Shown: positions 943-43,527, counted from the stretch's first letter. The stretch: 44,967 nt of DNA from an uncultured delta proteobacterium (GCA_963731595.1 CAVSWE010000003.1:300948-345914); one strand, 5' to 3'. The notes: a model not told the origin generated them from the letters alone. Numbers and translations are program-made.

Positions 943-1750
943 ATGGAGCATAGCGGCCCGCTCATCGCCGGCGTCGGGCTCACCGACCCTGCCCGGCGCA
1001 GCCATTGGCCGGCGAGGCTGGACCTGGCGCAGAGCGCCTCGGGTCTCCTGCTCGCGCTTTTCATGTGGGCGCATATGGCCTTCGTCTCGTCGATCCTGCT
1101 TGGCAAGGACGTCATGTGGATGGTCACGAAATTCTTTGAAGGCTATTTTCTCTTCGGCCGGTCCTATCCGGGGCTTGTCTCGACCGTGGTCGCGCTGGTC
1201 ATCGCGCTCGTGGTAACGCACGCCATTCTGGCGCTGCGCAAATTCCCGATTAACTACCGTCAGTTCAGCACCTTTCGCGGCCATATGCGGATGCTGCGGC
1301 ACGAGGACACAACGCTTTGGTTCTGGCAGGTTGTCACTGGCTTCGCCCTGTTCTTTCTCGCCTCGGTGCACCTCTACATCATGCTTACCCGGCCCGACCG
1401 TATCGGGCCGTTCGAATCCGCCGACCGGGTGTGGAGCGACCATTTCTGGCCGCTGTATATCGTGCTACTGCTGACCGTCGAGGTGCACGGCGGGGTCGGC
1501 CTGTACCGGCTTGGCCGTAAAATGGGGTTGGTTCGCAGGCGGCGATGCGAACGCGGTGCGGCGTCGGCTCAAGCTCGCCAAATGGGCGCTGACGGCCTTC
1601 TTTCTGGTCCTTGGCGTGGCGACTCTGGCCGCCTATATCAAGATCGGCATCGAGCACCGTGACCACTATGGCGAGCACTACGTTCCCGCGGCGCAGCAAG
1701 CGTCGTCACCCCAACCCGCCGCTGGGGGCGCGGCGGGGAGCCCTCGGTGA
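943..1750 (+). CDS. frdC: quinol:fumarate reductase dihaem cytochrome b membrane subunit (Wolinella type), +1 frameshift at ~1511-1516
   Basis: [11 protein letters not shown]...[14 protein letters not shown]...[54 protein letters not shown]...GLYRL aligns along its length with W. succinogenes FrdC. The C-terminus ..[16 protein letters not shown] continues in the +1 frame (ORF 1511..1750). An extra G in cttGGccg breaks the frame. The frdC stop overlaps the frdA GTG (GTGA). Confidence 0.8.
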
Positions 1751-3765
1751 ACGTGATCTACACCGACGTGCTGGTGATCGGCGGTGGCCTCGCCGGGTTG
1801 CGGATCGGCATCGGTGCCAAACGCCGCGGCCAAGACGTGATCATCCTGTCGCTCGTCCCGCCCAAGCGCTCGCACTCTGCGGCGGCGCAAGGCGGCATGC
1901 AGGCGAGCCTGGGCAACGTCGTCAAGGCGATGGGTGACAACGAGGACGTGCATTTCGAAGACACCGTGCGGGGCAGCGACTGGGGCGCCGATCAGCGCGT
2001 CGTGCGCATGTTCGTCGACACGGCGCCCAAGGCCGTGCGCGAGCTTGCCGCGTGGGGCGTGCCGTGGAGCCGCGTGCAGAAAGGTGACCGGAAGGTGATC
2101 ATCAACGGGCAGAAGGTCACGATCACGGAGCGCGACGAAGCGCATGGACTGGTGATGCAACGCGACTTCGGTGGTACCAAGAAATGGCGCGCCTGCTACG
2201 TCTCCGACGGCACGGGTCACGCCATGCTGTACGCGATGAGCGACCAGGCAATCGCCCACGCGATCAGCGTGCACGAGCGCATGGAGGCCCTGGCGCTGAT
2301 CCACGACGGGTCGCGCTGCTATGGTGCGGTAGTACGCAACCTCGTGACCGGGAAATTGGTCGCGTACGTCGCCAAGGCTACCGCCATTGCGAGCGGCGGC
2401 GCGGGACGCCTCTATCGCGCGACGACCAACGCGGTCATCTGCGAGGGCATCGGCACGGCGCTGGCGTTGGAGACCGGCGTGGCAATGGTAGCCAACATGG
2501 AGGCGATCCAGTTTCACCCGACGGCAATCTTTCCGGCATGCATTCTGGTCACCGAAGGCTGCCGTGGGGACGGTGGATTGCTGCGCGACGCTGCGGGCAA
2601 GCGCTTCATGCCCGACTACGAGCCGGAGAAGAAGGAACTCGCCTCGCGCGACGTCGTATCCCGGCGCATGGAAGAGCACATCCGCAGGGGCGCGGGCGTG
2701 AAGTCACGGTTCGGCGAGCATCTGTGGCTCGACATCACCCTGCTCGGGGCCAAGCACATCGACAGCAACCTGCGCGAAGTGAAGGAGATCTGCCACTATT
2801 TCCTCGGCATCGATCCGATCAAGGATTGGATACCGGTGCGACCGGCACAGCATTACACGATGGGCGGGATCCGGACCGACCACACCGGCGGTAGCCCGAC
2901 GCTCAAAGGACTCTACGCCGCCGGCGAAGCCGCGTGCTGGGACCTGCACGGCTTTAACCGCCTGGGTGGAAACTCGGTCGCGGAAACCGTCGTCGGCGGC
3001 ATGATCGTGGGCGAGTTCATCGCCGATTTCTGTGCTCGTCCCGAGAGCAACCTGCAGTTCTCCACCGGCCTGATCCGCGAATTCCTGGAGCACGAGCAGG
3101 CCAAGCTCGACGCGCTCGCCGGTAACCGGGGCGGGGAAGAAGCCAACGCATTGCGGGTCCGAATGCAGGAGATCATGACGACCAAGGTCGGGATCTTCCG
3201 CACCGGCGGGGAGCTTGCCGCCGCGGTCGAGGAGCTGCAGTCGCTGCTGCGGCGCAGTCAGAACATCGGCCTGCGCTGCACCGCAAGTGGCGCAAATCCG
3301 GAGCTCGTTTCCGCCTACCGGGTCCAGAAGATGCTGCGGCTGGCGCTGTGCGTCGCCTACGGCGCGCTGACTCGGACCGAGAGCCGGGGCGCGCATTTTC
3401 GCCATGACTATCCGCGGCGCGACGACGCCGAATGGCTGAACCGCACGCTAGCAACGTGGAAGAGCGCCGACGACATGCTGCCGACGCTGGCACGCGAATC
3501 GCTTGACGTGATGCAGATGGAGCTGCCGCCGGGGTGGCGCGGATATGGGGCGAAGGACTACGTCGAGCATCCCGACACGGCGCGTCGTACCGCGGAGGTG
3601 GAGGCGATCAGGACCAGGCTCGTCAGTGCCGGCCGCGGGGTCGTACAGGAGGCCCTGATGCCGTACGCTGAGCTCATGCCCGAGCGCTTCCGCGGACCCA
3701 ACGAGCGCATCGATGAGCCGCTGCCACCGTCTCCCGCAGGCCCGCAACGACCGAGCCCGACATGA
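1747..3765 (+). CDS. frdA: fumarate reductase flavoprotein subunit
   Basis: 672-aa ORF with GTG start. It has an N-terminal FAD Rossmann fold ([11 protein letters not shown]), the covalent-FAD His region ([10 protein letters not shown]), and the active-site motifs [11 protein letters not shown] and HYTMGGI typical of FrdA/SdhA. Confidence 0.92.
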
Positions 3766-3822: not shown

Positions 3823-4536
3823 GTGCGGATTAGCGTCCTGCGCTACAACCCGCAGGAGCGCGGCAGTGTTCCCCGCATGCAGGCCTACGAACTCGAAGAG
3901 GCCGAGGGAATGACGCTGTTCATCGCGCTCAACGAAATCCGCGAAAAGCAGGACGCATCCCTGCAATTTGACTTCGTCTGCCGCGCCGGGATATGCGGCA
4001 GCTGCGGGATGCTGATCAATGGGCGCCCAGGGCTCGCCTGCCGTACGCTGACAAAGAACCTGGACCCGGAGATCACGCTGGCGCCCCTGCCGGTCTTCGA
4101 ATTGATCGCCGACCTTTCGGTGAACACCGGCAAGTGGATGCGGGCGATGAGCGAACGGCTGCAGACCTGGGTGCACATGCGCCAGAAAGAGGTGGACACT
4201 TCCCGGCTCGAGGAGCGCATGGAGCCGGAGCTGGCGCAGAAAATTTACGAACTTGATCGCTGCATTGAATGCGGGTGCTGCGTCGCCGGTTGTGGCACCG
4301 CGCGCATGCGCGAAGACTTTGTCGGCGCGGTCGGCCTGAACAAGATCGCCCGTTTCCGGCTCGACCCGCGCGACACGCGCACCGACGCAGACTTCTACGA
4401 ACTGGTCGGTGACGACAGCGGTGTATTCGGTTGCATGTCCTTGCTCGCTTGCCACGATGTCTGCCCGAAGGAGTTGCCGCTCGCAACGCAAATCGCCTTC
4501 ATGCGTCGCAAGATGGTGAGCATCGGTTGGAAATAG
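3823..4536 (+). CDS. frdB: fumarate reductase iron-sulfur subunit
   Basis: 237 aa. It carries the 2Fe-2S motif CRAGICGSCGMLINGRPGLAC and the 4Fe/3Fe cluster motifs CIECGCCVAGC and CHDVCP. Confidence 0.9.
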   Translation: MRISVLRYNPQERGSVPRMQAYELEEAEGMTLFIALNEIREKQDASLQFDFVCRAGICGSCGMLINGRPGLACRTLTKNLDPEITLAPLPVFELIADLSVNTGKWMRAMSERLQTWVHMRQKEVDTSRLEERMEPELAQKIYELDRCIECGCCVAGCGTARMREDFVGAVGLNKIARFRLDPRDTRTDADFYELVGDDSGVFGCMSLLACHDVCPKELPLATQIAFMRRKMVSIGWK

Positions 4537-4568
4537 CAGCGTCTTTTTGCACCCTATGTGGAGGAGTC

Positions 4569-5575
4569 ATGAAGGTCGCAACGAAGTTTGCAACACTAAG
4601 TGTCGCACTGGCTAGTTTAGCGATTGCGTTCGGGGCACCCGCACAGCAGCCGATCATCATCAAGTTCAGCCACGTCGTTGCCGTCGACACGCCCAAGGGC
4701 AAGGGCGCGGAGAAATTCAAGCAGCTGGCCGAGGAGCGTACGAAGGGCCGGGTCAAGGTCGAGGTCTACCCGAACAGCACGCTGTACAAGGACGGCGAGG
4801 AAATCGACGCCCTGCAGCTGGGCTCGGTGCAGATGCTCGCCCCCTCGGTGGCCAAGTTCGGGCCGATGGGGGTGCGCGAATTCGAAGTCTTCGACCTGCC
4901 GTACATCTTTGACGACTTCGGCGAGCTGCACAAGGTCACCGAAGGCGCGGTTGGGAAACTGCTGTTCCAGAAACTCGATTCGAAGGGCATCGTCGGTCTT
5001 GCCTATTGGGACAACGGCTTCAAGGATTTCAGTGCCAACAAGCCGCTTAGGCTTCCCGGCGACGTCAGGGGTCTGAAGATGCGCATCCAGTCGTCGAAGG
5101 TGCTCGATGCCGAAATTCGTGCCCTCGGGGGGATTCCGCAGGTGATGGCCTTCTCCGAGGTGTATCAGGCGCTGCAGACCGGCGTGGTCGACGGCACCGA
5201 GAATCCACCGTCGAATTTCTATACCCAGAAGATGAACGAAGTGCAGAAGTATCTGACCCTGAGCGATCACGGCGTCATCGAATACGCGGTAATCGCGAAC
5301 AAGAAATTCTGGGATGGCTTGCCGGCGGATATCCGCACCATCCTCGAAGGCGCGATGAAGGATGCGACCAAATACGCCAACGACATCGCCAAGGAGGAGA
5401 ACGACAAGGCGCTCGCGGCGGTCAAGGCGACCGGGAAGACTGAAATCCTGACGCTCAGCCCCGATGCGAAGGCGGCCTGGAAAAAGGCGCTCTGCCGGTG
5501 CATCGAGAGATGGAAAGCCGGGTCGGCAAGGACATCATCCAGGAGGTCTACAAGGAAACCGGGTTCAAGCCCTGA
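4569..5575 (+). CDS. dctP: TRAP transporter substrate-binding protein DctP (C4-dicarboxylate), one -1 frameshift in an A5 run at ~5481
   Basis: MKVATKFATLSVALASLAIAFGAPAQQPIIIKFSHVVAVDTPKGKG... is a typical DctP with signal peptide. After ..AAWKK the conserved C-terminus (LPVHREMESRVGKDIIQEVYKETGFKP*) reads in the -1 frame and ends at TGA 5573..5575. The as-given ORF instead runs on to 5711. Confidence 0.8.
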
Positions 5576-5624
5576 CCGAGCGTTGCAGCGCCTGATGCGC
5601 GAGCCGGGTTCGACGCAAACCGAC

Positions 5625-5651
5625 GCCGCTGCGGCCCGCAGCGGCTTTTTT
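5625..5651 (+). terminator. rho-independent terminator (or attenuator) between dctP and dctQM
   Basis: gccgctgcgg-ccc-gcagcggc is a perfect 10-bp GC stem, followed by tttttt. It sits 50 nt after the reconstructed dctP stop. Confidence 0.5.
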
Positions 5652-5694
5652 GTGTGCAGCAGAACGGCGGTCGACCAACCGGGGACGCTTGCGC

Positions 5695-6306
5695 ATGCTG
5701 AAGCTCCTTGACCACCTCGAAGAGTGGCTCATCGCGCTGCTCATGGGCGGCGCGACGTTGATCATCTTCGTGGCCGTCGTTCACCGCTATGCCGCGGGCC
5801 TGCCCATCCCCGTGGTGCAGGACTGGCTGCTTGCGCTCAACCTGTCGTGGGCGCAGGAAGCATGCATCTACATGTTCGTATGGATGGCCAAGTTCGGTGC
5901 CGCTTACGGCGTGCGCACCGGCATCCACGTCGGCGTGGACGTGGTGATCAATCACCTGCCCGACGGCGTGCGCCGCAAGTTCATTCTTTTCGGACTGGGC
6001 GCCGGCGCGCTGTTCACCGGCGTGGTGGCCTCGTTCGGCGCCAGTTTCGTGTGGCAGCTCGCCCACACCGACCAGACCTCGCCCGACATGGAGCTGCCGA
6101 TGTGGCTGGTCTATCTGGCCATTCCCTGCGGCTCGGGGCTGATGTCCTTCCGCTTCCTCCAGGTGGCGTGGAACTTCTGGCGCACGGGCGAGCTGCCGCA
6201 TCACGACCCGACCGACGTGGCGGGCGTCGAAAAAATTGCCGACCAGGACGCCCACGTCGGCCTGGCGCAAGACAATCTTTTTCCCGCGCCGCCTGGCAAG
6301 CGCTGA
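5695..6306 (+). CDS. dctQ: TRAP transporter small permease DctQ
   Basis: MLKLLDHLEEWLIALLMGGATLIIFVAVVHRY... has four predicted TM helices, typical DctQ size and position. Confidence 0.8.
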   Translation: MLKLLDHLEEWLIALLMGGATLIIFVAVVHRYAAGLPIPVVQDWLLALNLSWAQEACIYMFVWMAKFGAAYGVRTGIHVGVDVVINHLPDGVRRKFILFGLGAGALFTGVVASFGASFVWQLAHTDQTSPDMELPMWLVYLAIPCGSGLMSFRFLQVAWNFWRTGELPHHDPTDVAGVEKIADQDAHVGLAQDNLFPAPPGKR

Positions 6307-6309
6307 GCC

Positions 6310-7605
6310 ATGACCTCCGCCATCATCTTCGGGCTGTTGATCGCGCTCATGCTCACCGGCATGCCCATCTCGATCGCGCTCGGGCTCACGGTCCTGACTT
6401 TCGTGTTCACCATGACCCAGGTGCCGATCGAATCGGTGGCCCTGAAGCTGTTCACCGGCATCGAGAAGTTCGAGATCATGGCCATCCCCTTCTTCATCCT
6501 CGCCGGCACTTTCCTCACCCATGGCGGGGTGGCGCGGCGGATGATCAATTTCGCCGCCTCCATGGTCGGCCATTGGCATGGAGGGCTGGCGCTCGCAGGC
6601 ATCATCGCCTGCGCGATGTTCGCGCTTGTATGCGGTTCGAGCGTCGCCACGGTGGTGGCCATCGGCTCCATCGTGCTGCCGGAGATGGTCAAGCGCGGCA
6701 TCCCCATGGACTTCGGCGCCGCCGTGATCACCGTCGCCGGTTCGCTCGGCATCCTGATGCTGCCGTCGATCCCCAAGGTCATCTACGCGATCGCCACCAA
6801 CACCTCGATCGGCGCGTTGTTTGTCGCCGGCCTGCTGCCGGGGATCCTGCTGACCACGATGCTCTGCCTGGTCACCTGGTATATCGCCAAGAAGCGCAAT
6901 TACCCGCGGCTGCCGCGCGAAAGCTGGGGCGCGCGCTTCAAGGCGTTCCGAGAGTCCGTCTGGGGCCTGATGCTCGTGGTCATCATCATCGGCGGCATCT
7001 ACTCGGGGATCTTCACCGCCACCGAGGCGGCCGCGATGGCCGCGGTGTACGCGTTCTTCGTGTCGGTGTTCGTGTACAAGGCCATGCCGCTCAAGGATTT
7101 GCGCAAGGTGCTGCTGACCTCGGCCAACATGAGCGCAATGCTGCTCTACATCATCACCAACGCGGCACTGTTCTCGTTCATCCTCACCAACGAGAACATT
7201 CCGCATGCCCTGGCGGACTGGATTATTGCCAAGGATCTGGGCTGGGTGGGGTTCCTGTTGCTGGCCAACGTGCTGTTGCTCCTGGCCGGCAATTTCATGG
7301 ACCCGTCCTCGGTCATTCTCATCATGGCGCCGATTCTCTACCCCGCGGCGATGACGCTCGGGATCAATCCGGTGCATCTCGGCATCCTGATCGACGTCAA
7401 CATGGAGGTCGGGCTCTGCCATCCCCCGGTGGGGCTCAATCTGTACGTGGCCTCGGGCATTTCGCGCCTCGGCATCACGCAGCTGACCAAGGCGCTGGTT
7501 CCCTGGCTCGTCACCATGCTGATCTTCCTGGTCATCGTCACCTATTGGCCGGCGCTGTCGACCTGGCTGCCGCAGAAGATGGGTATGATGGGGCCGTTGC
7601 CCTAG
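6310..7605 (+). CDS. dctM: TRAP transporter large permease DctM
   Basis: 431-aa polytopic membrane protein with DctM-family sequence throughout (MTSAIIFGLLIALMLTGMPISIALG...). It starts 4 nt after the dctQ stop. Confidence 0.9.
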   Translation: MTSAIIFGLLIALMLTGMPISIALGLTVLTFVFTMTQVPIESVALKLFTGIEKFEIMAIPFFILAGTFLTHGGVARRMINFAASMVGHWHGGLALAGIIACAMFALVCGSSVATVVAIGSIVLPEMVKRGIPMDFGAAVITVAGSLGILMLPSIPKVIYAIATNTSIGALFVAGLLPGILLTTMLCLVTWYIAKKRNYPRLPRESWGARFKAFRESVWGLMLVVIIIGGIYSGIFTATEAAAMAAVYAFFVSVFVYKAMPLKDLRKVLLTSANMSAMLLYIITNAALFSFILTNENIPHALADWIIAKDLGWVGFLLLANVLLLLAGNFMDPSSVILIMAPILYPAAMTLGINPVHLGILIDVNMEVGLCHPPVGLNLYVASGISRLGITQLTKALVPWLVTMLIFLVIVTYWPALSTWLPQKMGMMGPLP

Positions 7606-7647: not shown

Positions 7648-7953
7648 ATGTTACTCCGACCCACTTCGCAGATAAACTTCAGTTCTTTTGGCCCAACCAG
7701 TATGCGGCTCGCAAAGTTCGTCAAGGTACGCGAGGAGAAATTTGGCGGCGTCCTCTTCGAGACGCGCTCGGAGAAGGTTTTTACGCTCAATCCAACGGCC
7801 ATGGCGGTCGTGCGCGAGATCGAAGCAGGCCATGACGAGCGCGAGATCGCCATGCGACTGAAGGCGCGCTTTAACGACAGTACCGACGTGATCGAGCGCG
7901 AAGTCGTCGCGTTCATCGCGGAGCTGCGGCAGAGAAGCCTTGTCGAGGGTTGA
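7648..7953 (+). CDS. PqqD/MftB-family peptide chaperone (RiPP recognition element protein)
   Basis: (M)RLAKFVKVREEKFGGVLFETRSEKVFTLNPTAMAVVREIEAGHDEREIAMRLKARFNDSTDVIEREVVAFIAELRQRSLVEG matches the PqqD-family pattern (FG..L...., LN.ta..vw, C-terminal fi..L). An alternative start is ATG 7702. Confidence 0.65.
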   Translation: MLLRPTSQINFSSFGPTSMRLAKFVKVREEKFGGVLFETRSEKVFTLNPTAMAVVREIEAGHDEREIAMRLKARFNDSTDVIEREVVAFIAELRQRSLVEG

Positions 7954-7957
7954 GCGC

Positions 7958-9112
7958 GTGACAACATTGGCAACGGATAACGGACCCGACTCCGCGATCC
8001 CAGCGACGACCTCGACCTACGCCTGCTCGGAGGACCTCGCCGCGCCACTCTACGTGGCCTGGCAGATCACCAACGAATGCAACCTCGCCTGCCTGCACTG
8101 TATCGAGGAGAGCGGGCCGGGCAAGGCGTTCGCAGATGAGCTCGACGCGGCGCAGATATTCTCGGTGCTCGACCAGTTGCTGGACCACCAAGTCCCCTAC
8201 ATGTCCTTCTCGGGCGGCGAGCCTATGCTGCATCCGCAGTTCTTCGAGATGGTGGAGCACGTCTGCGCGCGTGGCGCCCAGCTCAAGATCGAGACCAACG
8301 GTCATTATCTGTCCGCCGAAAACTGTGCGCGGATGAAGGAACTCGGCGTCAAGGCGGTCCAGGTGAGCCTCGACGGCGCGTCCGCCAAGACGTTCGAGCG
8401 TATGCGCGTGCGCGGGAACTTCGATCGCACGCTCGATGGCCTGCGCAACCTTCGCGCGGCAGGCGTGCCCGTGGAGATTAACTTCTCGCCCGCCTGCTTC
8501 AACGTCCATGAGATCGGCGCGGTCGTCGACCTCGCATACAAGCTGGGCGCATACAGCTTCTACACCGGGACGCACGATGTACACCGGCAACGCCGTCAAG
8601 GCTTGGCGCCACCTGGAAGTTTCGGAGCCGAGCAATACGAGGCGTTCTTCGCTGTTCTGCGGCAAAAAGCCGAGGAGTACCACGGCCGCATGCGCGTCTA
8701 CTTTCACGAGGCGGGGTTGCTCGAGGAGCTGCGTTATCGCCTGCAGCACCCGGCTGCGCTGCTGATCGTGCTCCCGAACGGCCTGGTCAAGCTCATCAAC
8801 GCCTTGCCCTTCGTGTGCGGCGATTTTCGCCGCCAGACGCTGCGGGAAATCTGGGCGAATTTCCGCCGCGCCTGGCACGACCCGCGCGTGGCACAGTTCG
8901 TCGACGAGCTTGGCACCGACCCGGGCGGACACGGACGCTGCACCAATGGGTCTATCTTTGACTGCGCTGCCCGTGCGATCCGGCCGTTCGGCGCGCACGG
9001 CGCTGCACCGGCTGCTCGCCGTTTGCCGCCTGGTGCGCTACCGGTTTTTCCTATATGCCGGGCTGCTGCCGTATCTGCTCGGCGCGGCCTGGGCCTACGC
9101 TCGCGCTGGTAG
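7958..9112 (+). CDS. radical SAM enzyme, MftC/PqqE-like (SPASM-family-like) maturase, paralog 1 of 3. The 3' end is uncertain and there is an internal compensating frameshift pair at ~8570/8623
   Basis: ..PLYVAWQITNECNLACLHCIEESGPGKAFADEL..FSGGEPMLHPQFFEMV..QLKIETNGHYL..VQVSLDGASAKTFERMRVRGNFDRTLDGLRNLRAAGVPVEINF aligns block by block with mycofactocin maturase MftC (CLTWELTYRCNLACVHCLSSSGKRDPGEL...GGGEPTVRPDF...VQISLDGATAEV...). The CxxxCxxC motif follows the W-x-I-T motif. Its tail overlaps the start of the prenyltransferase gene. Confidence 0.72.
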   Translation: MTTLATDNGPDSAIPATTSTYACSEDLAAPLYVAWQITNECNLACLHCIEESGPGKAFADELDAAQIFSVLDQLLDHQVPYMSFSGGEPMLHPQFFEMVEHVCARGAQLKIETNGHYLSAENCARMKELGVKAVQVSLDGASAKTFERMRVRGNFDRTLDGLRNLRAAGVPVEINFSPACFNVHEIGAVVDLAYKLGAYSFYTGTHDVHRQRRQGLAPPGSFGAEQYEAFFAVLRQKAEEYHGRMRVYFHEAGLLEELRYRLQHPAALLIVLPNGLVKLINALPFVCGDFRRQTLREIWANFRRAWHDPRVAQFVDELGTDPGGHGRCTNGSIFDCAARAIRPFGAHGAAPAARRLPPGALPVFPICRAAAVSARRGLGLRSRW

Positions 9113-9897
9113 CCTTCGACGCGCCGATTTTCTGGAGCGGCCTCGCGGGTGTAGTGCTCGCCGTAATCGGCGTCGAGGCATTCAACGAGTATTTCGATTC
9201 ACGCATGGGCACCGACCGCGTCTTCAACCCGGCCGAACTCCCGCCGATGTCTGACGCAGTGCTCTGGTTGGGCATTGCGGCCTTCGCCGGCGCGCTGGCG
9301 GTCGGCATCTACCTGACCGTGCGTGGCGGCTGGCCGATCCTGGCCTTCGCACTCCTGGGTGGAACGGCGGCGATCTTTTATGTGGCGCCCCCGATACGCT
9401 GGGCCTATCGTGGCCTGGGCGAACTGGTCATCGCCCTGTCCTACGGGCCCTGGATGGTACTGGGCAGCCTCTACCTGCAGAGCCAGGCGCTGTCGTGGGG
9501 GGCGCTCTTCGCGTCGCTCGTACCGGGATGCCTGATCATGGCGCTCGCGGTCGTCAACGCGATTCCCGATTACCACCAGGATCGCTTGGTCGGCAAGCGC
9601 AATCTCGTCGTGCGGCTCGGCCGCCGGCGCGCGGTTTGGCTGTATCTTGCCCTTGCGGCAGGCGGACTGCTGGTGGTGCCGGTCGGCGTAGCGAGCGGCA
9701 TCTCCCCGCCACCTGCCTGGCGGCCTTACTGGCGGTGCCGCTGCTCGTGGCCAGCGGCCGCTGCGCGCTGCGGCACTTATGAAACACCGCGCGCCTTTGT
9801 TCCCGCCGTGCGCAGCATCGTCGGCTGCTATCTGGTCGCCGTCGTGCTGTTCACCGCCGGCGTCCTGTGCAGTGGCGTAGCGTCCTTGCGCCCATGA
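8946..9897 (+). CDS. UbiA-family polyprenyltransferase, MenA-like (1,4-dihydroxy-2-naphthoate polyprenyltransferase-like). As given it carries ~3 frameshifts (~9095, ~9715, ~9780)
   Basis: Reconstructed MGLSLTAL..RLVRYRFFLYAGLLPYLLGAAWAYA / LALVAFDAPIFWSGLAGVVLAVIGVEAFNEYFDSRMGTDRV...NAIPDYHQDRLVGKRNLVVRLG has both UbiA Asp-rich motifs (N-x3-D-x5-D and D-x3-D). The NAIPDYHQDRLVGKRNLVVRLG segment matches E. coli MenA NNLRDINSDRENGKNTLVVRLG. The start overlaps the paralog-1 radical-SAM gene; the stop overlaps the paralog-2 start (ATGA at 9894..9897). Confidence 0.7.
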
Positions 9898-10861
9898 ACT
9901 GGATCGATCGCCTGCGCGCGCCGCTGTTCGTGTCCTGGCAGATCACGCGCGACTGCGACCTGTGCTGCCTGCATTGCTGCACCGAGTCGGCGCCGGGGAA
10001 GCGGTTGCCGGACGAACTCGACGCTGCCGAAGCGACGTGGCTGGCCGAGGAGATCGTCCGCAACGCAGTGCCCTACGTGATGCTTTGCGGCGGCGAGCCT
10101 TTGGTCGTGCCGCACTTTTTCGCCCTTGCCGAAGTCGCTGGGGCGGGCAGGCGTCCAGCTGAAGATCGAGACGAACGGGCAGCGCTTCGATGCCAAACTC
10201 GCCGCCCGGCTCGCCCGCCTGCCCGTCCGGTCGGTACAGATTAGCCTGGACGGCGACACACAGGAGGTCTACGAGCGCCAGCGGCCCGGGCGGCTTCGCT
10301 CGCCAAAGCCCATGCGGCCTGCCGCGCCGCTCGTGCGGCCGGGCTGCCGCTCGAAGTCACCTTTGCGCCGACCCGGCTCAACATTCACCAGGCCGGGCCG
10401 GTCATCGAGCGGGCGCGGGCGCTTGGTGCCTTTCGCTTCAATACCGGGCGGCTCATGCGCATCGGCACCGCCGCGCGGCTGTGGGAGAAGCTCGAGCCTT
10501 GCCGAGGAGCAATACCGGGAATTCCGCGCCTGTTGAACCGCATGGCCCGGCGCCTAGAGGGGCAACTGGAGATTTGCCATGCTCCGTTTGACCTCGCGGA
10601 AGGGCTGCGCGGCAGCCTCCAGAACGCCGCCGGCAACCCTGCTCGTGCTGCCCAACGGCTGGGTCAAGGTTGCCGCGGCACTGCCGCAGATCTGCGCTGA
10701 CTTGCGCCGCCATAGCCTTGACGGAGGCCTGGGAGGCCTACCGCAACGCGTGGCGGAGTGATACAGTGCTGGCGGAAGTACGGCGCGCGGTCGCCGATCC
10801 ATCGCGTCACGCGCGAGGCCAACAGTTGGCAGTTGTTGCCCGTCGCCCCGGTGTGACCTGA
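9894..10861 (+). CDS. radical SAM enzyme, MftC/PqqE-like, paralog 2 of 3. It is broken into at least 4 ORF pieces by about five 1-nt indels, from sequencing error or real pseudogenisation
   Basis: The pieces MNWIDRLRAPLFVSWQITRDCDLCCLHCCTESAPGKRLPDELDAAE..CGGEPLVVPHFFALAE / VQLKIETNGQRFD..VQISLDGDTQEVYERQRPG / ..AARAAGLPLEVTFAPTRLNIHQAGPVIERARALGAFRFNTGRLMRIGTAARLWEKLEP / LLVLPNGWVKVAAALPQICADLRRHSL / EAWEAYRNAWRSD.. are collinear with paralog 1 across four reading frames. Confidence 0.6.
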
Positions 10862-10872
10862 CGGAGGGAAAA

Positions 10873-11025
10873 TGAGCGAGTTGAACCTGACGATCGAAGC
10901 CGCCAAGACCGGCGACGAACGCAAGACCGATACGGTGCAGCCGGCGCAAAAGCCGCATGGGAAACGCCCAAGCTCGAGGACGTGTCCGAGCAGGTGATGG
11001 CCCAACCGTATATCCGCTTCACCTG
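10873..11025 (+). CDS. candidate RiPP precursor peptide (51 aa, reconstructed across one frameshift in an A4 run at ~10949-10952); PqqA-like C-terminal core
   Basis: A strong SD (ggaggg-aaa-ATG) precedes it. Frame 1 reads MSELNLTIEAAKTGDERKTDTVQPAQK. After a 1-nt indel in caaaag the frame continues as AAWETPKLEDVSEQVMAQPYIRFT* to the TGA at 11023. The W-x-x-P-x-L-x-D-V...E...Y pattern recalls PqqA (WKKPAFIDLRLGLEVTLY). It sits immediately upstream (20 nt) of paralog 3. Confidence 0.4.
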
Positions 11026-11045
11026 AGATACCCAGAACTTTCGCA

Positions 11046-11982
11046 ATGCCGGGGCGTTCGGTAGAAGAGTACCGAGCACCCCTTTTTCTTGCCTGGCAGC
11101 TGACCAACCGCTGCGCTGCGCGCTGCATCACCTGCTGCGAGGAATCCGGTCCCGATAAGGCATGGGGCGATGAGCTTTCCCGTGACGAGGCGATCGCGCT
11201 TGCACGGCGCATCGCGGCGTTCGGCATCGCCTACGTTGCCTTCGGCGGCGGCGAGCCGCTAGGTGTACCGCATTGCTGGGATCTGCTCGAGCTGCTCGCC
11301 GCGGCCGGCATCGCTCTTAAGATCGAGACCGACGGCAGTCACATCGACGCTTCCGCGGCCGATCGGCTCTCGGCGCTCGGCGTCGAGTGCATCCAAATTT
11401 CGGTCGACGGAGCGACAGCGGCGACGCATGAGCGCGTGCGTCCGGGATCGAGCTTCGCCGCGGCGGTCGCCGCCATCGAGCGACTGGTCGCGCGCGGTCG
11501 TGCACCGCAATTGGTGTTCGTTCCCACCCGCTTCAACTGCACGAGATCGTCGCCGCGTTCGATCTGGCGGCAACGCTCGGCTGCGGCGCATTCGTCACCG
11601 GCCCGCTGATGCGCATCGGCCGCGCCGCGGGCGCACTGGCAGCGCATCGCCTGCAGCAGACGAGGAGTGGCGCGCCGCGGTTACCGCGTTGAGAGAACGC
11701 ACCGCGTCGATGCGGCCCCGGAATGGCCCTTGTCGATCTATCCTTGGGACATTCGTTGCGGAGATGGAAACGCGGCTCGAGCGACCGCAGGCGATGCTGC
11801 TGGTCGTGCCCAACGGCAAGGTCAAGCTGCTCAATGCGCTCCCGTTCGCCGCCGCCGACCTGCGCCGCGATTCGCTCGAGGACGCGTGGCGGGCCTATCG
11901 CGACGCCTGGCATGCGCCGGAGGTGCGCGAATTCATCACCCGCTGCCGCAGCCAATCCAGCGCTGCTGATGCACGCCAATGA
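11046..11982 (+). CDS. radical SAM enzyme, MftC/PqqE-like, paralog 3 of 3 (at least 2-3 frameshifts as given)
   Basis: MPGRSVEEYRAPLFLAWQLTNRCAARCITCCEESGPDKAWGDEL..AFGGGEPLGVPHCWDLLELLAAAGIALKIETDGSHID..IQISVDGATAATHERVRPGSSFAAAVAAIERLVARGRAPQLVFVPTRFN, then in other frames ..AFVTGPLMRIGRAAGAL.. and ..ERPQAMLLVVPNGKVKLLNALPFAAADLRRDSLEDAWRAYRDAWHAPEVREFITRCRSQSSAADARQ*. This is collinear with paralogs 1 and 2. Confidence 0.6.
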
Positions 11983-12112
11983 GACATGGCCGATGGTTAG
12001 GAACGACGGTTGACCCCCGCGCCAGAAACCCCAATACTTAAGCGGCTGTGATTGAATACTTACCCGTCGTAGCGAAGCTTTTGAGGGCCCGGGAGCCCGC
12101 TGATCGGTTGCG

Positions 12113-12442
12113 ATGCATCGACTGACATTGGGACTACTCGCCGCCTGCACCGCTGGCGCAATCGCGGTTGCGGCCCAGCCAGCGCCGGACAGCTCCCGCG
12201 GCGAGCTCCTCTATTCCACCCATTGCATCGGTTGCCATAGCGCGCAGGTGCATTGGCGCGAAAAGAGGCTGGCGACAGACTGGGCAAGTCTCAGGATGCA
12301 AGTATTTCGATGGCAGATGAACACGGGCCTCGCCTGGAGCGACGAGGACATCGTCGCTGTCACCCGCTATCTGAACGATCTCTACTACCGTTTTCCGACG
12401 CCGGACAGGCCGGTGGCATTTCAGGGGTCGTCGGGTAACTGA
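12113..12442 (+). CDS. secreted mono-haem c-type cytochrome (109 aa)
   Basis: It has a signal peptide (MHRLTLGLLAACTAGAIAVAAQPAP) and a single CxxCH haem-binding motif (HCIGCHS). Same strand as the radical-SAM cassette, 130 nt downstream of it. Confidence 0.65.
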   Translation: MHRLTLGLLAACTAGAIAVAAQPAPDSSRGELLYSTHCIGCHSAQVHWREKRLATDWASLRMQVFRWQMNTGLAWSDEDIVAVTRYLNDLYYRFPTPDRPVAFQGSSGN

Positions 12443-12585
12443 TCCCGGGCTGCCGCGTCAAATCGATGTGAGTCGCTCGTTCTTTGCCGTCGACAAATGC
12501 TCTAGCTCGGGAGGCGCGCGCATACGACGGTCGAGTCCATCTCCCAGCGAGTGATCACTCGTGCCCCCAACGCGAGTGTACTGTT

Positions 12586-13095
12586 CTAGCTTGGCCGCCG
12601 CTGCAATAACGTGCCCAGGAGCAGAGCGAAGCCCAGGAAAATGACAAGCGACGCTTGCGCCAGAGTAAGTCCCAGGATCTTAAAGGACGTATCGGAACAG
12701 TCTCCCGTGGCATGCAGCAGTTGGGTCAGTACTTCGCTGACCGCCATGGTGTCCAGCATGTAGGCCAGGCCGGCACTGCAAGAGGCGACGCTTGGTGCCG
12801 GAAAAAGTTGCAGGTACGTCTGATAGCCGGCGACCCCGAGTCCTTCCAACGTCAGGATCGCAGCCATCCAAAGGAGAGCCCGCTGTACTCGACCTTGGGG
12901 CCGCGCCACGGCTGCGGCAAAGAAGACGGGTATCAGGCCAAGATACGTGAGCCGTTGGATGATGCACAAGGGGCACGGTTCGATCCCCAGTATGTGCTGG
13001 ACAAAAAAGCTTGCACCGACAAGACCGGTGCAGGTCACTCCAAGCAAGATCGAAACTTGGGCAGGAGAAGTCAGCACACGCGAAAGCCTATTCAC
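12586..13095 (-). CDS. dsbB: disulfide bond formation protein B (DsbB family)
   Basis: Four TM helices. A first periplasmic-loop CxxC (EPCPLCIIQR) and a second Cys pair (SCSAG ... GDCSD) fit the DsbB architecture. Confidence 0.6.
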   Translation of the reverse strand: MNRLSRVLTSPAQVSILLGVTCTGLVGASFFVQHILGIEPCPLCIIQRLTYLGLIPVFFAAAVARPQGRVQRALLWMAAILTLEGLGVAGYQTYLQLFPAPSVASCSAGLAYMLDTMAVSEVLTQLLHATGDCSDTSFKILGLTLAQASLVIFLGFALLLGTLLQRRPS

Positions 13096-13511
13096 GGAAA
13101 TCGGCCGGCAATGCAGCTCCCCGCGGGACCCAGTACGCTAGGGGAATTTTGCCACGTCCGAGCCTGATCTCAGAAGTTTCTCCTCCGCAAAGGGCTGCTT
13201 CACCGCCCCAGGCCCGACGCGCGGAGCTTGGCCGCAATGGCTGGTGAATTTCGGCTTCACGACCCGGTGATCGCCCGGAGGCGCATCGCGAAATGCGCCT
13301 GGTCTGCGCCAAAGTGGCGCGAACGGCGCCTGGTTGACAGTCGGGGAATCGCCTGGCGGTTGCATGTTAAATCAATAACTTGCGACGCTTACCCTCTTAG
13401 TTGCGCATGAATTAGCGTCGTTGGAGTTTCCTTGAGGTACATCAACAGCCCAGATACGGCTTGGCTATAGGCTTCGTATTGCGGTGCAACAAAATCACGT
13501 CAGGAGCGCCC

Positions 13512-14327
13512 ATGGAGTTTCAAGGAAAAGTTGCGGTAATTACCGGTGCGGCCAGCGGCATCGGACGGGCGGTGGCGTTTGAATTGGCGCGCCGCAACGT
13601 GCGCGCGATGGCGCTGGTGGACATAGGCGAGAACATCGATGGCGTCGCCGCAGAAGTCAATGCGAAGGCCGGCCGTCAGGTCGCCTACCCTTACCGGGGC
13701 GATACGACCGACGAGGCGTTTCGCGCTTCGGTTTTCGATTCCATCAGTAGCCAGTTCGACACCGTCACGATGTGCGTGCCGGCCGCCGGCATCACGCGCG
13801 ACGAACTTGCAGTCCGTATCGACAAGATCACTGGCAAGGCACGGATCTATCCGGTGGACCGGTTCAAGCAGGTCATCGATGTGAACCTCGTGGCGCCGGT
13901 CTACTGGGCGCTCGAGATGATCGGACGCATCGCCGAGAATCGCGCCGCCTGCGGCCTCAAGCGATGGCAGCCGTCGGAGGGCATGCAAGGGGCCATAGTG
14001 TTCATCGGCTCAGTTTCTTCGCAGGGCAATCGTGGCCAGATCTCCTACGCCAGCGCCAAGGCCGGCCTCGAGGGAGCGGCCGCGACGATTATGAAGGAGG
14101 CGGTTTTCTACGGCGTTCGCTGCGGGCTTATCCACCCGGGGTTCACCGACACACCTATGGTGCGCGCAATGGGTGATGACTACATCAGCAAGCACATATT
14201 ACCTTTCACCCAATTGAGCCGGTTGATTCGCCCCGAGGAAATTGCCGATGCGATCTGCTTCATGCTCGCCAACTCGGCGGTGAGCGGCGAATTGTGGGCG
14301 GACGCAGGCTGGCATGCACCCGCGTAG
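13512..14327 (+). CDS. SDR-family short-chain dehydrogenase/reductase
   Basis: MEFQGKVAVITGAASGIGRA carries the TGxxxGxG NAD(P)-binding motif, and the catalytic Y-x3-K sits in SYASAKAG. Confidence 0.8.
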   Translation: MEFQGKVAVITGAASGIGRAVAFELARRNVRAMALVDIGENIDGVAAEVNAKAGRQVAYPYRGDTTDEAFRASVFDSISSQFDTVTMCVPAAGITRDELAVRIDKITGKARIYPVDRFKQVIDVNLVAPVYWALEMIGRIAENRAACGLKRWQPSEGMQGAIVFIGSVSSQGNRGQISYASAKAGLEGAAATIMKEAVFYGVRCGLIHPGFTDTPMVRAMGDDYISKHILPFTQLSRLIRPEEIADAICFMLANSAVSGELWADAGWHAPA

Positions 14328-16569: not shown

Positions 16570-17051
16570 TCAGCCCGTGAACTCATGCGCCCTGACCTGG
16601 CCGTGCTGGCGGCGAGCGACGTCTTTCAGCCGCGCGGTGAGGCTCGCGAAGCCGTCGCGCAGCGCGACATACACTTCCTCGTCGTGGTCGCAATTGACGA
16701 CGAGCTCGTGGCCCGGAAGATCCGTGAGGTCCGGATTGCCACCATGCGACGGCATCTGTCGGACACCCTTAAGCGCATTCTTTTCCGCACCCGCCCGGTG
16801 CTCCAACTTCAGCCGGTCAAGCAGCGGTGCCGCGTCCGGAAGGCGCACACGCAAAAGCTGGAACAGATACTGATCCTCCTTGGGATGGTGAAAGCACTCG
16901 CGGAATGCATCGATGTAATAGATCATCGCCCCAGCACGCCGAAATCCGACGTGGCTCCCCGGTCGCGGATCTGGTGCACCAGATAAAGCATGCCGTGCAA
17001 GACCGCCGCCAGCGAACGGTGTTCGTCCTGAATGGCGCGGTTCGCCTGCAT
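16570..17051 (-). CDS. hemerythrin-like (HHE cation-binding) domain protein, one frameshift at ~16930
   Basis: MQANRAIQDEHRSLAAVLHGMLYLVHQIRDRGATSDFGVLG then shifts frame to MIYYIDAFRECFHHPKEDQYLFQLLRVRLPDAAPLLDRLKLEHRAG.., with the H-x3-E / HH..KE motifs of hemerythrin-like domains. ATG 17051 lies 25 nt downstream of the hemN stop. Confidence 0.55.
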
Positions 17052-17075
17052 ATTCGTCCTTCTTTCCCGAATGCA

Positions 17076-18478
17076 TCAGATGATGCGCGAGTTGCGCGCC
17101 GCCCACGCTGCTCACGCAGGTAACGGTCGAATACCATCGCCACCGTGCGAACTAAGAGCCGACCGCGCGGCGTCACGTGGATCGCGTCCGATGCGATTTC
17201 GACCAACCCGTCGTCGGCCAGCGGTGCAAGTGACTTGAGCTCGGTTGCGAAGTAATCGCGGAACGCGATGGCGTACGCGCTCTCGACGCGCTCGAACGAG
17301 ACGGTGAATTGGCACATGAACGCGTGGATCACATCGCGCCGCAAAACGGTCGTCGGCAGAAAGCCGCCAGCCGCGAAAACATGGTAGCGCATCGTCGTCG
17401 AGCCGGGCGTAGTAATCATCCAGAGTACGCAGATTCTGGCTGTAGGACGCACCGACCTTGCCGATTGCGGAAATACCGAATGCCAAAAGATCGCAATCAG
17501 CGTGCGTCGAGTAGCCTTGAAAATTGCGGTGCAGCTTGCCTCACGCTGTGCGACAGCAAGCGCGTCGTCGGGCCGCGCGAAATGATCCATGCCGATGTAG
17601 ACGTAACCGGCGCCGGTCAACTTTTCGATTGCAAGCTCAAGAAGGGCTAACTTGGCCTCCGCCGACGGCAACTCCGCTTCGCTGATGCGCCGCTGCGGCT
17701 TAAACAGATGTGGCACGTGCGCATAGCTGTATAGCGCAAGTCTATCCGGCGCACCGTCGAGCACCTTGTCCAACGTGACGGCCGAAGCCGGCCAAAGTCT
17801 GCCGCGGGAGACCATAGATTAAGTCGATGTTTAAGGAGCGGAAGCCATTCGCACGTGCGGCGTCGAGTACAAATGCGAGTCTCGGCTTCCGATTGAATGC
17901 GGTTCACCGCCTGTTGTACGGCTGGGTCGAAGTCCTGTACGCCGATGCTCATCCGGTTGAAGCCAAGCTCCGAGAGAAGCTTAACCGTCCCGGCGACGCC
18001 AAATGGCGGGGGTCGACTTCGATCGAGCATTCGGCGTCAGGCACAAACGCAAAGCTGTCGTGTAGGACACGCCATAGCAACTGTCATTTCCTCGGCCGAC
18101 AGGAACGTCGGCGTGCCGCCGCCCCAGTGCAACTGTGTGACGGGGGACGCCGAATCGACGAGCCCCGACACGATTGCGACCTCCCTGCCGAGATAGTGGA
18201 TATATTTTGCGGAGCGGCCATGGTCCCGGGTCGTGACCTTGTTGCACGCGCAGTAGTAGCAGATGGTGTTGCAGAACGGCACGTGCACGTACAGCGACAG
18301 CGGCTGCGGCGCGCCGGCTCTGGCGGTTGACAAGCGCGTTAGCGAGATGGTCGGCGGTGAATGCTTCCGTAAAGCGATCTGCCGTCGGATAGGAGGTGTA
18401 GCGCGGCCCAAAGCCATCGTACTTGCGGATCAGATCCGAGTCGAACGGGAGGCCTGTAGTCGGCGTGCAGTGAACCAT
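17076..18478 (-). CDS. hemN: oxygen-independent coproporphyrinogen III oxidase (radical SAM), at least 4 frameshifts as given
   Basis: The pieces [40 protein letters not shown] / [36 protein letters not shown] / [22 protein letters not shown] / [67 protein letters not shown] / [24 protein letters not shown] are collinear with E. coli HemN across several frames. Confidence 0.7.
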
Positions 18479-18706
18479 GTTGGCATCGTGCCAGCCGACC
18501 ATTGCTTTGAACTTGAGCTAGATCAAGCCGGCTGCAGACTCGTTCAGAATCGTGGACACGTGCGCACGTTGCCTCGGCCCATCGCCTATTCGACATCCAT
18601 GTCAGACTGACCGGCCGGGGGGGGCGATTTCTGGGTAGTCCGCACGCCACCACGTCGAGCGACGTAAAGCCACACGGTCGAGGCAAAGTGTGCAGAGAGC
18701 TAAGCA

Positions 18707-19249
18707 TCAAAGTCCAGAGCGTCGGCAACCGAGGAGATTGGCACGCATCCAGACTGCGTGTTCACGTTCAGGCGGCATTTGCGGTCGCTCATCAACGACG
18801 TTGTAGGCGACTTCATAGTGCGCCACGCTGCGGTCATGGCTAAGCATCATGGCTTCGACAGGGGGCGGGACGACAGCGACTCCAACGTCGGCGCCAGCAA
18901 ACGCTTTGATAGCCCCCAAAGACTCCCACAGCGTTAGAGCGCGGATGCTTCCGTCGCCTTCACCGCCTGGATCCCCGACCGGATGCCCTCGGACAGCATC
19001 GCGGCAAACGGCGTCTCTCCAAACGGGGGCCCTCAGCGTCCAGGAAACGCGTGCCACAGATCCTCGCCAAAGTAGGCGAGAGAACTGTATTGGCTGGGCT
19101 GCAACGCGTCCGGCGGCAGCGAATTGGTCGCGGAGAGGCGGTACCATGCCAGCGTGGTTGCCAAACAGACTGCCACGGCGACCGCCATGGCGATTCGAGT
19201 GGCCGATTTGCGCGGGATCCGATTCGTCATCGCCGAATCCTCCTATCAC
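18707..19249 (-). CDS. putative ABM-domain (antibiotic-biosynthesis-monooxygenase-like) protein; N-terminal frame uncertain
   Basis: The C-terminal ..DGSIRALTLWESLGAIKAFAGADVGVAVVPPPVEAMMLSHDRSVAHYEVAYNVVDE resembles the second half of ABM/YgiN-type domains. A TM/signal segment (ORF 19033..19230) lies upstream in another frame. Confidence 0.3.
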   Translation of the reverse strand: MIGGFGDDESDPAQIGHSNRHGGRRGSLFGNHAGMVPPLRDQFAAAGRVAAQPIQFSRLLWRGSVARVSWTLRAPVWRDAVCRDAVRGHPVGDPGGEGDGSIRALTLWESLGAIKAFAGADVGVAVVPPPVEAMMLSHDRSVAHYEVAYNVVDERPQMPPEREHAVWMRANLLGCRRSGL

Positions 19250-42396: not shown

Positions 42397-42720
42397 GTGT
42401 TGCAGATGAGACCTCGGATCTATTACACGGAGAGTCAGAGGGCGCTGATGTGGGAGCGCTGGCAGAAGGGTGATTCTCTACACCAAATCGCGCGGTTGTT
42501 TGATCGGAACCACCCATCTATAGCGCGGATTTTAGGCGAGACGGGTGGGATCCGTCCGGCGCCACGAAAGCGCTCGCGATTGGCGTTGACCTTGGCCGAA
42601 CGCGAAGAGATCTCGCGCGCGGTGGTTGCCGGTCATTGCATGCGTTCGATAGCAGTGCACCTCGGCCGAGCGCCATCGACGATCAGTCGGGAGCCTCTCT
42701 TGGCGAAACGTCTCGAGCCT
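42397..42720 (+). mobile_element. IS30-family transposase N-terminal (HTH) remnant
   Basis: ..IYYTESQRALMWERWQKGDSLHQIARLFDRNHPSIARIL..LTLAEREEISRAVVAGHCMRSIAVHLGRAPSTISRE is the conserved IS30 transposase N-terminal HTH region. The rest of the ORF is non-homologous and the catalytic domain is absent. Confidence 0.65.
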
Positions 42721-42975
42721 TCGTGGCGGCACCTGCGTGAGCGCGTCGGTACCGGCACTGCCTCGGACGCAACGTTCCGAGCGCCACACAAATGCTCAAC
42801 CGATTGCGCCGACACGCAGCCTATGGCCGCTTGCCAACGACCTTTCCGTTCTCCCAAACGTAGATGCGCGTGCCGTGCACGCGCGCAGTCTTCCTTGCTT
42901 GGCGCGCCGCTCTTTGAATTGCCCGGGCCACAGCCGCGAAGAAACGTTCGTTCTCCTTGGATTTCGCGTGTTTTA

Positions 42976-43527
42976 TCATGGACCTCGCTCGATCAGCTTT
43001 GGTTTGTCTCCCGCATTATCGTAGACGGTCCACACGTCTGCCATGGGCCGATAAATGGCCCAAAAATTATCCCAGCTTCGCTGAAATCGACGCCGTACGT
43101 CGACCTCGGGGACATCATGTCCCCCTTGCTTGACGCGCTCGGCAATCCTTCGCAGGGCGAGCCGTGGGGACGGTAGCTTCAAGTAAACGATCTCCACTCT
43201 ATAGCCGGCCGTCTTCCAGCGTTTTAACCGCGACAGGTATGCAACGCCACTGAGTGTACTCTCAAACGCAAAATCTACCCGTTCGGCTGCGAGCCGGTCC
43301 AGTTCCCTAAGAAAGATTCGTCCCGCGGCCAGCGCTGCCATTTCGGGGCGAAGTGGAGCGAGACCCGCGGCGATCAAATCTGCGTTCACAAAGTGGATCA
43401 CCTTGGCGTCAATTGGAAGAAATTGACGAGCGAAGGTCGTCTTCCCTGCCCCGTTCGGCCCGGCGATGACGATGCAGCGGTGTGCTTTTCGACGCCGCCG
43501 GGTGGCAGCACTCGCCCTAGTCGTCAT
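42976..43527 (-). CDS. zeta-toxin-family / AAA P-loop ATPase (putative toxin)
   Basis: CIVIAGPNGAGKTTFARQF is a Walker A motif. ..ESTLSG..GYRVEIVYLKLPSPRLALRRIAERVKQGGHDVPE..VRRRFQRS is the PF06414 zeta-toxin-family pattern. Confidence 0.65.
   Translation of the reverse strand: MTTRASAATRRRRKAHRCIVIAGPNGAGKTTFARQFLPIDAKVIHFVNADLIAAGLAPLRPEMAALAAGRIFLRELDRLAAERVDFAFESTLSGVAYLSRLKRWKTAGYRVEIVYLKLPSPRLALRRIAERVKQGGHDVPEVDVRRRFQRSWDNFWAIYRPMADVWTVYDNAGDKPKLIERGP

Follow-up and report, generated by a model that had tools for sequence, protein, structure and literature searches.

A Conserved Six-Gene Operon Combining a Putative Ribosomal Peptide Precursor, Three Radical SAM Enzymes, and a UbiA-Superfamily Prenyltransferase

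Introduction

What might a bacterium make with an operon in which the genes of a peptide-maturation module are interleaved with the gene for a membrane prenyltransferase? The question is raised by positions 7648 to 12442 of the window analyzed here (the whole stretch of 44,967 bases, G000:C3:300948-345914, near the end of contig 3 in the genome assembly G000 of an uncultured delta proteobacterium). An earlier note on this DNA, made from its sequence alone, described a cassette comprised of a PqqD-like recognition element (RRE) for a peptide synthesized ribosomally and modified post-translationally (RiPP), three tandem radical S-adenosylmethionine enzymes (rSAM-1, rSAM-2, and rSAM-3) resembling MftC and PqqE, a MenA-type prenyltransferase, a candidate precursor peptide of 51 amino acids (aa), and a cytochrome c, the whole fused to a fumarate-respiration block. 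Here, we describe six of these genes as an operon whose order is conserved well beyond the window, present the features of the small peptide, and weigh what its product may be, including whether that product could serve as a membrane redox molecule.

Results

Mapping of open reading frames (ORFs) and Pfam domains over the window reproduced the list, order, and positions of genes given in the earlier note. The operon lies on the + strand and begins with a PqqD-family RRE chaperone (7648..7953, +; Pfam PF05402, E=4.3e-13), for which the true start is probably near 7702, as the gene called in sister assemblies encodes 83 aa. This is followed by rSAM-1, a RiPP maturase-like enzyme of 333 aa when intact (7958..8960, +; PF04055 and Fer4_12), and by a UbiA-superfamily (MenA-like) membrane polyprenyltransferase of ~316 aa when intact (8946..9897, +; PF01040, E=3e-22). 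The remaining genes are rSAM-2, a paralog of rSAM-1 with ~318 aa when intact (9894..10858, +; PF04055), the putative RiPP precursor peptide of 51 aa when intact (10872..11026, +), and rSAM-3, the third paralog, with ~320 aa when intact (11046..12013, +; PF04055).

To place the locus among its relatives, we searched contigs from GTDB, with one genome per species, using an intact rSAM-1 homolog (P0001) as the query, and obtained 159 relatives. Their hosts include Casimicrobiaceae, Caldimonas, Usitatibacter, and other Burkholderiales; Steroidobacteraceae; Acidiphilium, Acidocella, and Acidisphaera; and Elusimicrobiota, and one complete genome, that of Betaproteobacteria GR16-43, is among them. 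Conservation was counted in 80 loci of the 159 relatives by tblastn with intact queries, and all locus counts given below refer to this set. The order pqqD, rSAM-1, ubiA, rSAM-2, small ORF, rSAM-3 was found, with near-constant spacing, in every locus covering these genes; pqqD lies upstream of rSAM-1, at 250-400 nt, in each of the 80 loci, and 75 of them show the small ORF. Where the copies are intact, neighboring genes overlap or are closely spaced. In a Casimicrobiaceae relative (L001) holding intact rSAM-2 (11934-12890), rSAM-3 (13082-14044), and UbiA genes, the UbiA and rSAM-1 genes overlap by 16 nt at the rSAM-1 stop, an ATGA is shared between UbiA and rSAM-2, and the peptide is separated by 15 nt from rSAM-2 and by 20 nt from rSAM-3. 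These junctions, together with the six-gene order kept in relatives, uphold the single-operon reading proposed previously, and, as judged from comparative sequence analysis, the six genes are one conserved operon that is spread over several phyla. A scan for promoters and terminators returned chance-level matches only and was uninformative, and a tRNA scan of the window found none.

The small ORF was compared across the 80 loci and 45 database homologs, and it has two parts, an N-terminal leader of ~25-30 aa whose sequence varies and a C-terminal core that is invariant (…W-E-T-P-K-L-E-D-V-S-E-Q-V-M-A-Q-P-Y-I-R-F-T), so that the layout of the precursor is a variable leader plus the invariant ...WETPKLEDVSEQVMAQPYIRFT. 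The columns that are invariant among the 45 database homologs are W30, P33, L35, D37, S39, E40, V42, M43, A44, P46, Y47, I48, R49, F50, and T51, and even in Acidiphilium and Elusimicrobiota the stretch AQPYIRFT is unchanged. Homologs of the precursor form ~1359 clusters, every one of which carries the name "hypothetical protein," and the sister assemblies call the precursor as a 51-aa gene. Because no Pfam or NCBIfam model matched the precursor, we do not regard it as a PqqA or an MftA.

A variable leader joined to a conserved core is the standard signature of a ribosomal peptide that is modified afterwards. The sequence features by which a RiPP cluster is recognized occur here together: a short conserved precursor, a variable leader, a conserved core, and a location beside maturases and an RRE. 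With its variable leader, invariant core, and position next to the RRE and the maturases, the small ORF is, as far as sequence features can tell, a genuine RiPP precursor. The earlier note had proposed this ORF as the candidate precursor and had named its conservation as a point on which that proposal could fail; its retention at the same position in 75 of the 80 loci, with an invariant core, substantiates the proposal.

Matches of the RRE to the NCBIfam families for PqqD, MftB, and lasso-type PqqD all fell below cut-off. An ESMFold complex predicted from the window PqqD and the alignment of the precursor gave an interface score (ipSAE) of 0.52, versus 0.08 for the best control. It reached the pass mark, as did 58 of the 80 complexes with solved structures and 2 of the 110 mismatched pairs (scores of 0.60 or less were given by 7 solved complexes only); the predicted local distance difference test (pLDDT) of the partner was 54, and the runs agreed on at least 86% of contacts. 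This predicted pairing lends weak support to an interaction of the RRE with the precursor and is not, by itself, evidence of binding. PqqD-PqqA complexes have already been solved, and the model's pass may reflect memory of them.

The three radical SAM enzymes are paralogs of 317-333 aa when intact, each with the CxxxCxxC radical-SAM motif, and they have in common the C-terminal motif L-x-V-x-P-N-G-x-V-K-x-x-x-A-L-P. No SPASM domain was matched in them by Pfam, and the C-terminal ~90 aa are without a Cys cluster. Their best NCBIfam matches are to MftC, AhbD, NirJ, PqqE, and SkfB-type maturases, all far under the curated cut-offs, with MftC as the best match for each of the three. The top scores were 121.8 bits for MftC (TIGR03962; obtained with rSAM-1) against a cut-off of 265, 84.8 bits for PqqE (TIGR02109) against 381, 119 bits for AhbD against 500, and 115 bits for NirJ2 against 500. 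Membership in MftC, PqqE, NirJ, AhbC/AhbD, SkfB, SCM, GeoRSP, ACGX, and the other NCBIfam radical SAM systems was rejected on such scores, and no Nir or Ahb partner genes were found among the neighbors. An AlphaFold2 model of rSAM-1, built from a 43-sequence alignment, had a pLDDT of 84.7 and a predicted template modeling (pTM) score of 0.84, and a Foldseek search with this model returned SkfB (6efn) as the best match (E 1.9e-17, TM 0.70), followed by PqqE (6c8v), BlsE, and SuiB. The modeled structure thus suggests a RiPP-maturase-like fold, and with it a peptide-modifying role. The description of the three enzymes as MftC/PqqE-like was therefore apt, given the best NCBIfam match and the SkfB and PqqE neighbors of the rSAM-1 model; an assignment to NirJ, AhbC/AhbD, or anSME, which would have spoken against it, finds no support, in that the NirJ and AhbC/D scores reach no curated cut-off.

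For the prenyltransferase, the best NCBIfam matches are 1,4-dihydroxy-2-naphthoate polyprenyltransferases, and the MenA-like label holds as a statement of closest resemblance, below cut-off: PRK06080 matched at 109 bits against a cut-off of 264, and menA TIGR00751 at 73 bits against 102. The protein has no BLAST relation to the four other UbiA-family proteins of G000, which include an MqnP candidate, and no MenA above cut-off was found in G000. A futalosine menaquinone cluster is present elsewhere in this genome (G000:C4:2020537-2025691), with MqnC-like radical SAM proteins (frameshifted), MqnA/D (PF02621), and the UbiA-family MqnP candidate (L105). Because the futalosine pathway is encoded, the organism is not without a low-potential quinone.

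Clustering of the neighborhoods of the 80 loci, a method that is noisy in high-GC DNA, revealed no universal peptidase, transporter, or electron-transfer partner. This agrees with the reported absence of a known peptidase from the window, and the reported absence of mftD/E/F and pqqB/C likewise extends to the 80 loci, where no such conserved neighbors occur.

The copy of the operon in the window does not itself read through. All of its genes are broken by frameshifts, as the earlier note had flagged, with ~12 or more indels, and we mapped the frame breaks from a three-frame translation of the window. The rSAM-1 copy has an out-of-frame segment at ~8565-8631 (indels 8565/8627/8631) and a shift at ~8925; the UbiA copy has indels at 8976/8986, 9113, and 9701/9771; the rSAM-2 copy has several (~10130, ~10320, 10622, and ~10760); the precursor reads as 41 aa, not 51, with an indel at ~10957; and the rSAM-3 copy is interrupted at ~11535 and at ~11700-11780. 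When the window is compared with Logan contigs of four soil-metagenome runs (two studies; 90-99% alike), indels separate the two exactly at the frame breaks (8565, 8627, 8631, 8925, 8976, 8986, 9113, 9701, 9771, 9868, 10622, 10957, and more). In a Logan contig all six core genes are intact, at 83, 333, 310, 318, 51, and 320 aa.

The intact P0001 shares 91% identity with the window rSAM-1 over 327 aa and differs from it in the out-of-frame segment; P0001 lies on an ENA contig (ERZ25039546; 505,833 bp) that has the gene order of the window: pyruvate:ferredoxin oxidoreductase (PFOR), frdC, frdA, frdB, DctP, DctQ, DctM, PqqD (83 aa), a radical SAM enzyme (333 aa), UbiA, a second radical SAM enzyme, the 51-aa ORF, a third radical SAM enzyme (320 aa), a 109-aa cytochrome c, DsbB, a short-chain dehydrogenase/reductase (SDR), an AAA protein, hemerythrin, and HemN. 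On this contig rSAM-1, the precursor, and rSAM-3 are intact, as judged from the lengths of the called genes and not from direct re-translation. Two independent assemblies, from the same species or a near relative, hold the cluster intact and in the same gene order.

Frame breaks also occur in other genes of G000 (7.81 Mb, 12 contigs, 85.5% complete, 1.3% contaminated), where rpoB (C4:956645-960707) is split over two frames and rpoC (C4:952440-956533) over at least three, and the NCBI-annotated rSAM-1 is the frameshifted protein P0151, of 384 aa. Since rpoB and rpoC are also broken, the contigs of relatives are intact at the indel sites, and the sister assemblies are intact, these sequence comparisons identify the frameshifts as artefacts of assembly or sequencing and not as decay; the frameshifts flagged previously are thus real features of the window sequence that Logan contigs and sister assemblies resolve.

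The G000 assembly is indel-prone genome-wide, and for this reason its NCBI annotation mis-calls genes (e.g., P0151); gene-level work on this genome should rely on polished or sister assemblies. Further downstream in the window (16570-19249, - strand) is a HemN-like radical SAM region with fragmented ORFs, for which HemN_C is the only match. The sister ENA assembly has an intact HemN of 474 aa and a hemerythrin-domain protein at this place, and the fragmentation in the window is probably another assembly frameshift.

The first 7.6 kb of the window are an anaerobic-respiration block on the + strand, comprised of a quinol:fumarate reductase and a tripartite ATP-independent periplasmic (TRAP) C4-dicarboxylate transporter. 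All six of its genes are intact and were identified by Pfam: frdC (865-1662, +; Sdh_cyt), frdA (1747-3765, +; 672 aa; FAD_binding_2/Succ_DH_flav_C), frdB (3823-4536, +; Fer2_3), dctP (4431-5711, +; DctP), dctQ (5650-6306, +; DctQ), and dctM (6310-7605, +; DctM). POR genes stand just upstream of frdCAB-dctPQM (on the sister ENA contig; window ~1-860, - strand), and in the lineage of the window the POR genes, frdCAB-dctPQM, and the operon form an anaerobic-metabolism island. Among relatives, frdA occurs 1-7 kb upstream of the cluster in ~22 of the 80 loci, mostly in a Casimicrobiaceae-like clade. The proposed fusion to a fumarate-respiration block is therefore correct for this locus, where frdCAB and dctPQM do lie upstream, but it is lineage-specific.

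Beyond rSAM-3 is a gene for a mono-haem (CxxCH) cytochrome c of 109 aa (12113..12442, +; a weak Pfam Cytochrom_C match). A cytochrome c gene is beside the cluster in a single relative locus (L002; 1/80) and in the window species, and we rejected it as a conserved part of the core, so that its inclusion in the cassette by the earlier note was not sustained. Only in the window species is the operon followed by the secreted mono-haem cytochrome c together with a DsbB homologue, and an SDR gene (13461-14327) lies downstream of the cytochrome c gene.

In the remainder of the window (~20000-44967), the GC content drops from ~0.62-0.68 to ~0.57, and the GC skew flips sign near 21 kb. This part encodes a Fe/Mn superoxide dismutase, a Crp-family regulator, a beta/gamma-crystallin-domain protein, a ChaN haem-binding protein, a Sel1-repeat protein, a patatin, a CPT-like kinase, and an IS630-type HTH_38 transposase (42397-43176), and it may be a horizontally acquired segment.

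Discussion

We consider it somewhat probable that the operon makes a ribosomal peptide product which is then modified and prenylated, a logic of RiPP formation plus prenylation. The starting points are the gene content, its conservation, the signature of the precursor, and the protein folds, and the chemistry and the order of steps proposed here are modeled on the PqqD/PqqE, MftB/MftC, and UbiA families. The 51-aa precursor would be translated, and the PqqD-family RRE would bind its leader and present the core …LEDVSEQVMAQPYIRFT to the three radical SAM enzymes; this step is suggested because it is the known logic of PqqD/PqqE and MftB/MftC. The three enzymes would then modify the core by radical chemistry, for which crosslinking (C-C or C-heteroatom) or decarboxylation is most plausible, in the region of the invariant Tyr47 and Phe50 and the C-terminal Ile-Arg-Phe-Thr. 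The UbiA/MenA-type enzyme would add a polyprenyl chain, perhaps once the core has been released by a host protease, and most likely on an aromatic ring that the radical SAM chemistry has created or uncovered, a step that we propose because of the known chemistry of the UbiA superfamily. The end product would be a lipid-soluble, membrane-resident, prenylated molecule derived from a peptide. The use that we favor for it is in the membrane, as a redox mediator or cofactor, a suggestion that we put forward tentatively; in the lineage of the window, the neighbors of the operon are quinol:fumarate reductase, a TRAP dicarboxylate transporter, and PFOR.

If this reading is true, RiPP chemistry linked to a UbiA-made prenyl tail would be a new bacterial route to a membrane molecule. 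It would extend the logic of peptide-derived cofactors, as in pyrroloquinoline quinone (PQQ) and mycofactocin, into the membrane, and make peptide-built redox carriers a testable question. Were the product a redox cofactor, the discovery would be significant. In either case the operon, widely distributed among Pseudomonadota and Elusimicrobiota of soil and water, is a concrete and testable target for natural-product discovery.

In a sharper form of the same proposal, which is the working hypothesis of the earlier note (there with a Trp/Tyr-based head group), the product would be prenylated, peptide-derived, and quinone-like, and would carry electrons in partnership with fumarate reductase or with other respiratory enzymes of the membrane; we hold this as possible, although doubtful. 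The prenyltransferase resembles MenA, an enzyme that builds menaquinone, the operon stands beside frdCAB, dctPQM, and PFOR in Casimicrobiaceae/Burkholderiales loci, and the invariant core holds a Tyr and a Phe that could form a quinone-like head group. Stated most specifically, this would be a new class of carrier, in which a quinone-like head made from a ribosomal peptide by radical SAM crosslinking bears a polyprenyl tail added by UbiA and functions alongside fumarate reductase in anaerobic or microaerobic respiration, an outcome that we think unlikely. If real, such an electron carrier would be the ribosomal equivalent to menaquinone or ubiquinone.

Several points weigh against the prenylated peptide as proposed, and against its respiratory use in particular. 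The link to frd is found in about a quarter of the loci and is lineage-specific, the cytochrome c is not conserved, and the hosts include aerobic acidophiles (Acidiphilium) as well as Elusimicrobiota. The window genome encodes menaquinone genes of the futalosine pathway, and by this gene content menaquinone synthesis in the host likely does not depend on the RiPP operon. As far as the noisy neighborhood clustering of the 80 loci indicates, the cluster has no dedicated peptidase or transporter. To our knowledge, a peptide would be an unusual prenyl acceptor for an enzyme of the UbiA family, and every step past gene content is one that we infer.

The main rival to a redox use is a lipidated signaling or antimicrobial RiPP, crosslinked by the radical SAM enzymes and prenylated by UbiA, that would be membrane-active or pheromone-like and would have no respiratory role; the prenylated ComX pheromone and the lipidated lanthipeptides are cases for comparison. 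The RRE, the radical SAM maturases, the prenyltransferase, and the precursor would fit any RiPP with a lipid tail, and respiration genes are absent from ~75% of the loci. However, the neighborhood clustering revealed no conserved transporter, immunity gene, or peptidase, and a prenylating enzyme of the UbiA superfamily is more in keeping with quinone-like chemistry than with the known lipopeptide pathways. Enzymes of this superfamily act on aromatic head groups in the membrane, and known lipopeptide pathways use other prenyltransferase families. We regard a lipopeptide of this kind as rather improbable.

It is more improbable still that the prenyltransferase has an ordinary quinone precursor as its substrate and is adjacent to the peptide module by coincidence. 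Its MenA-type similarity is what such an explanation would predict, but the operon, with its overlapping stop/start junctions, is conserved across phyla, and the genome already holds UbiA paralogs, including the MqnP candidate of the futalosine cluster. The last explanation, that the cluster in the window consists of pseudogenes in decay after inactivation in this strain, would account for ~12 or more indels, spread over every core gene, and is nevertheless very improbable, and we reject it, given the intact letters at every indel site in the soil-metagenome contigs, the rpoB and rpoC genes broken in the same assembly, and the intact genes of the Logan contig and of the ENA assembly with its near-identical P0001 and the same flanks.

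The preferred reading, a ribosomal peptide that is modified and then prenylated, can be set against systems that are already described. The earlier note knew of none that combines a PqqD/MftC-type module with a MenA-like prenyltransferase, and our searches are in accord with this: literature searches (PqqD with radical SAM and UbiA or prenyltransferase; RiPP with UbiA; peptide-derived quinone; AQPYIRFT) found nothing relevant, and among the curated families (hidden Markov model libraries, NCBIfam) none describes a radical SAM RiPP system with a UbiA-superfamily prenyltransferase.

The operon is like mycofactocin, for which the product is a proposed peptide-derived redox molecule, in having a ribosomal precursor, a PqqD-family RRE, and maturation by MftC-like radical SAM enzymes. 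Unlike mycofactocin, it has three radical SAM paralogs without SPASM where mycofactocin has one SPASM-containing MftC, it has a UbiA-type prenyltransferase in place of MftD/E/F (found neither in the window nor among the conserved neighbors of the 80 loci), and the core of its precursor ends in ...QPYIRFT, whereas MftA has a C-terminal Val-Tyr.

The likeness to PQQ is in the maturation of a short precursor by an RRE and a radical SAM enzyme and in the Tyr-containing core, with crosslinking probable, and PqqE is among the top structural neighbors of the rSAM-1 model. In contrast to PQQ, PqqB, PqqC, and PqqF are absent, and the precursor is longer, has a leader, and is unrelated to PqqA; the radical SAM enzymes here also differ from PqqE in being without the SPASM auxiliary-cluster domain. 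In overall fold they resemble the SPASM/twitch maturases (SkfB, SuiB, PqqE, and anSME), from which they differ in their length of 317-333 aa, in the absence of the Cys-rich auxiliary-cluster region, and in having a C-terminal motif of their own.

Finally, the prenyltransferase is like MenA and MqnP in being a membrane enzyme of the UbiA family, with 1,4-dihydroxy-2-naphthoate polyprenyltransferases as its closest models, and it is unlike them in scoring under every curated cut-off and in its location within a RiPP operon. The pairing of a radical SAM RiPP system with a UbiA prenyltransferase looks new in kind, and it is built from known parts.

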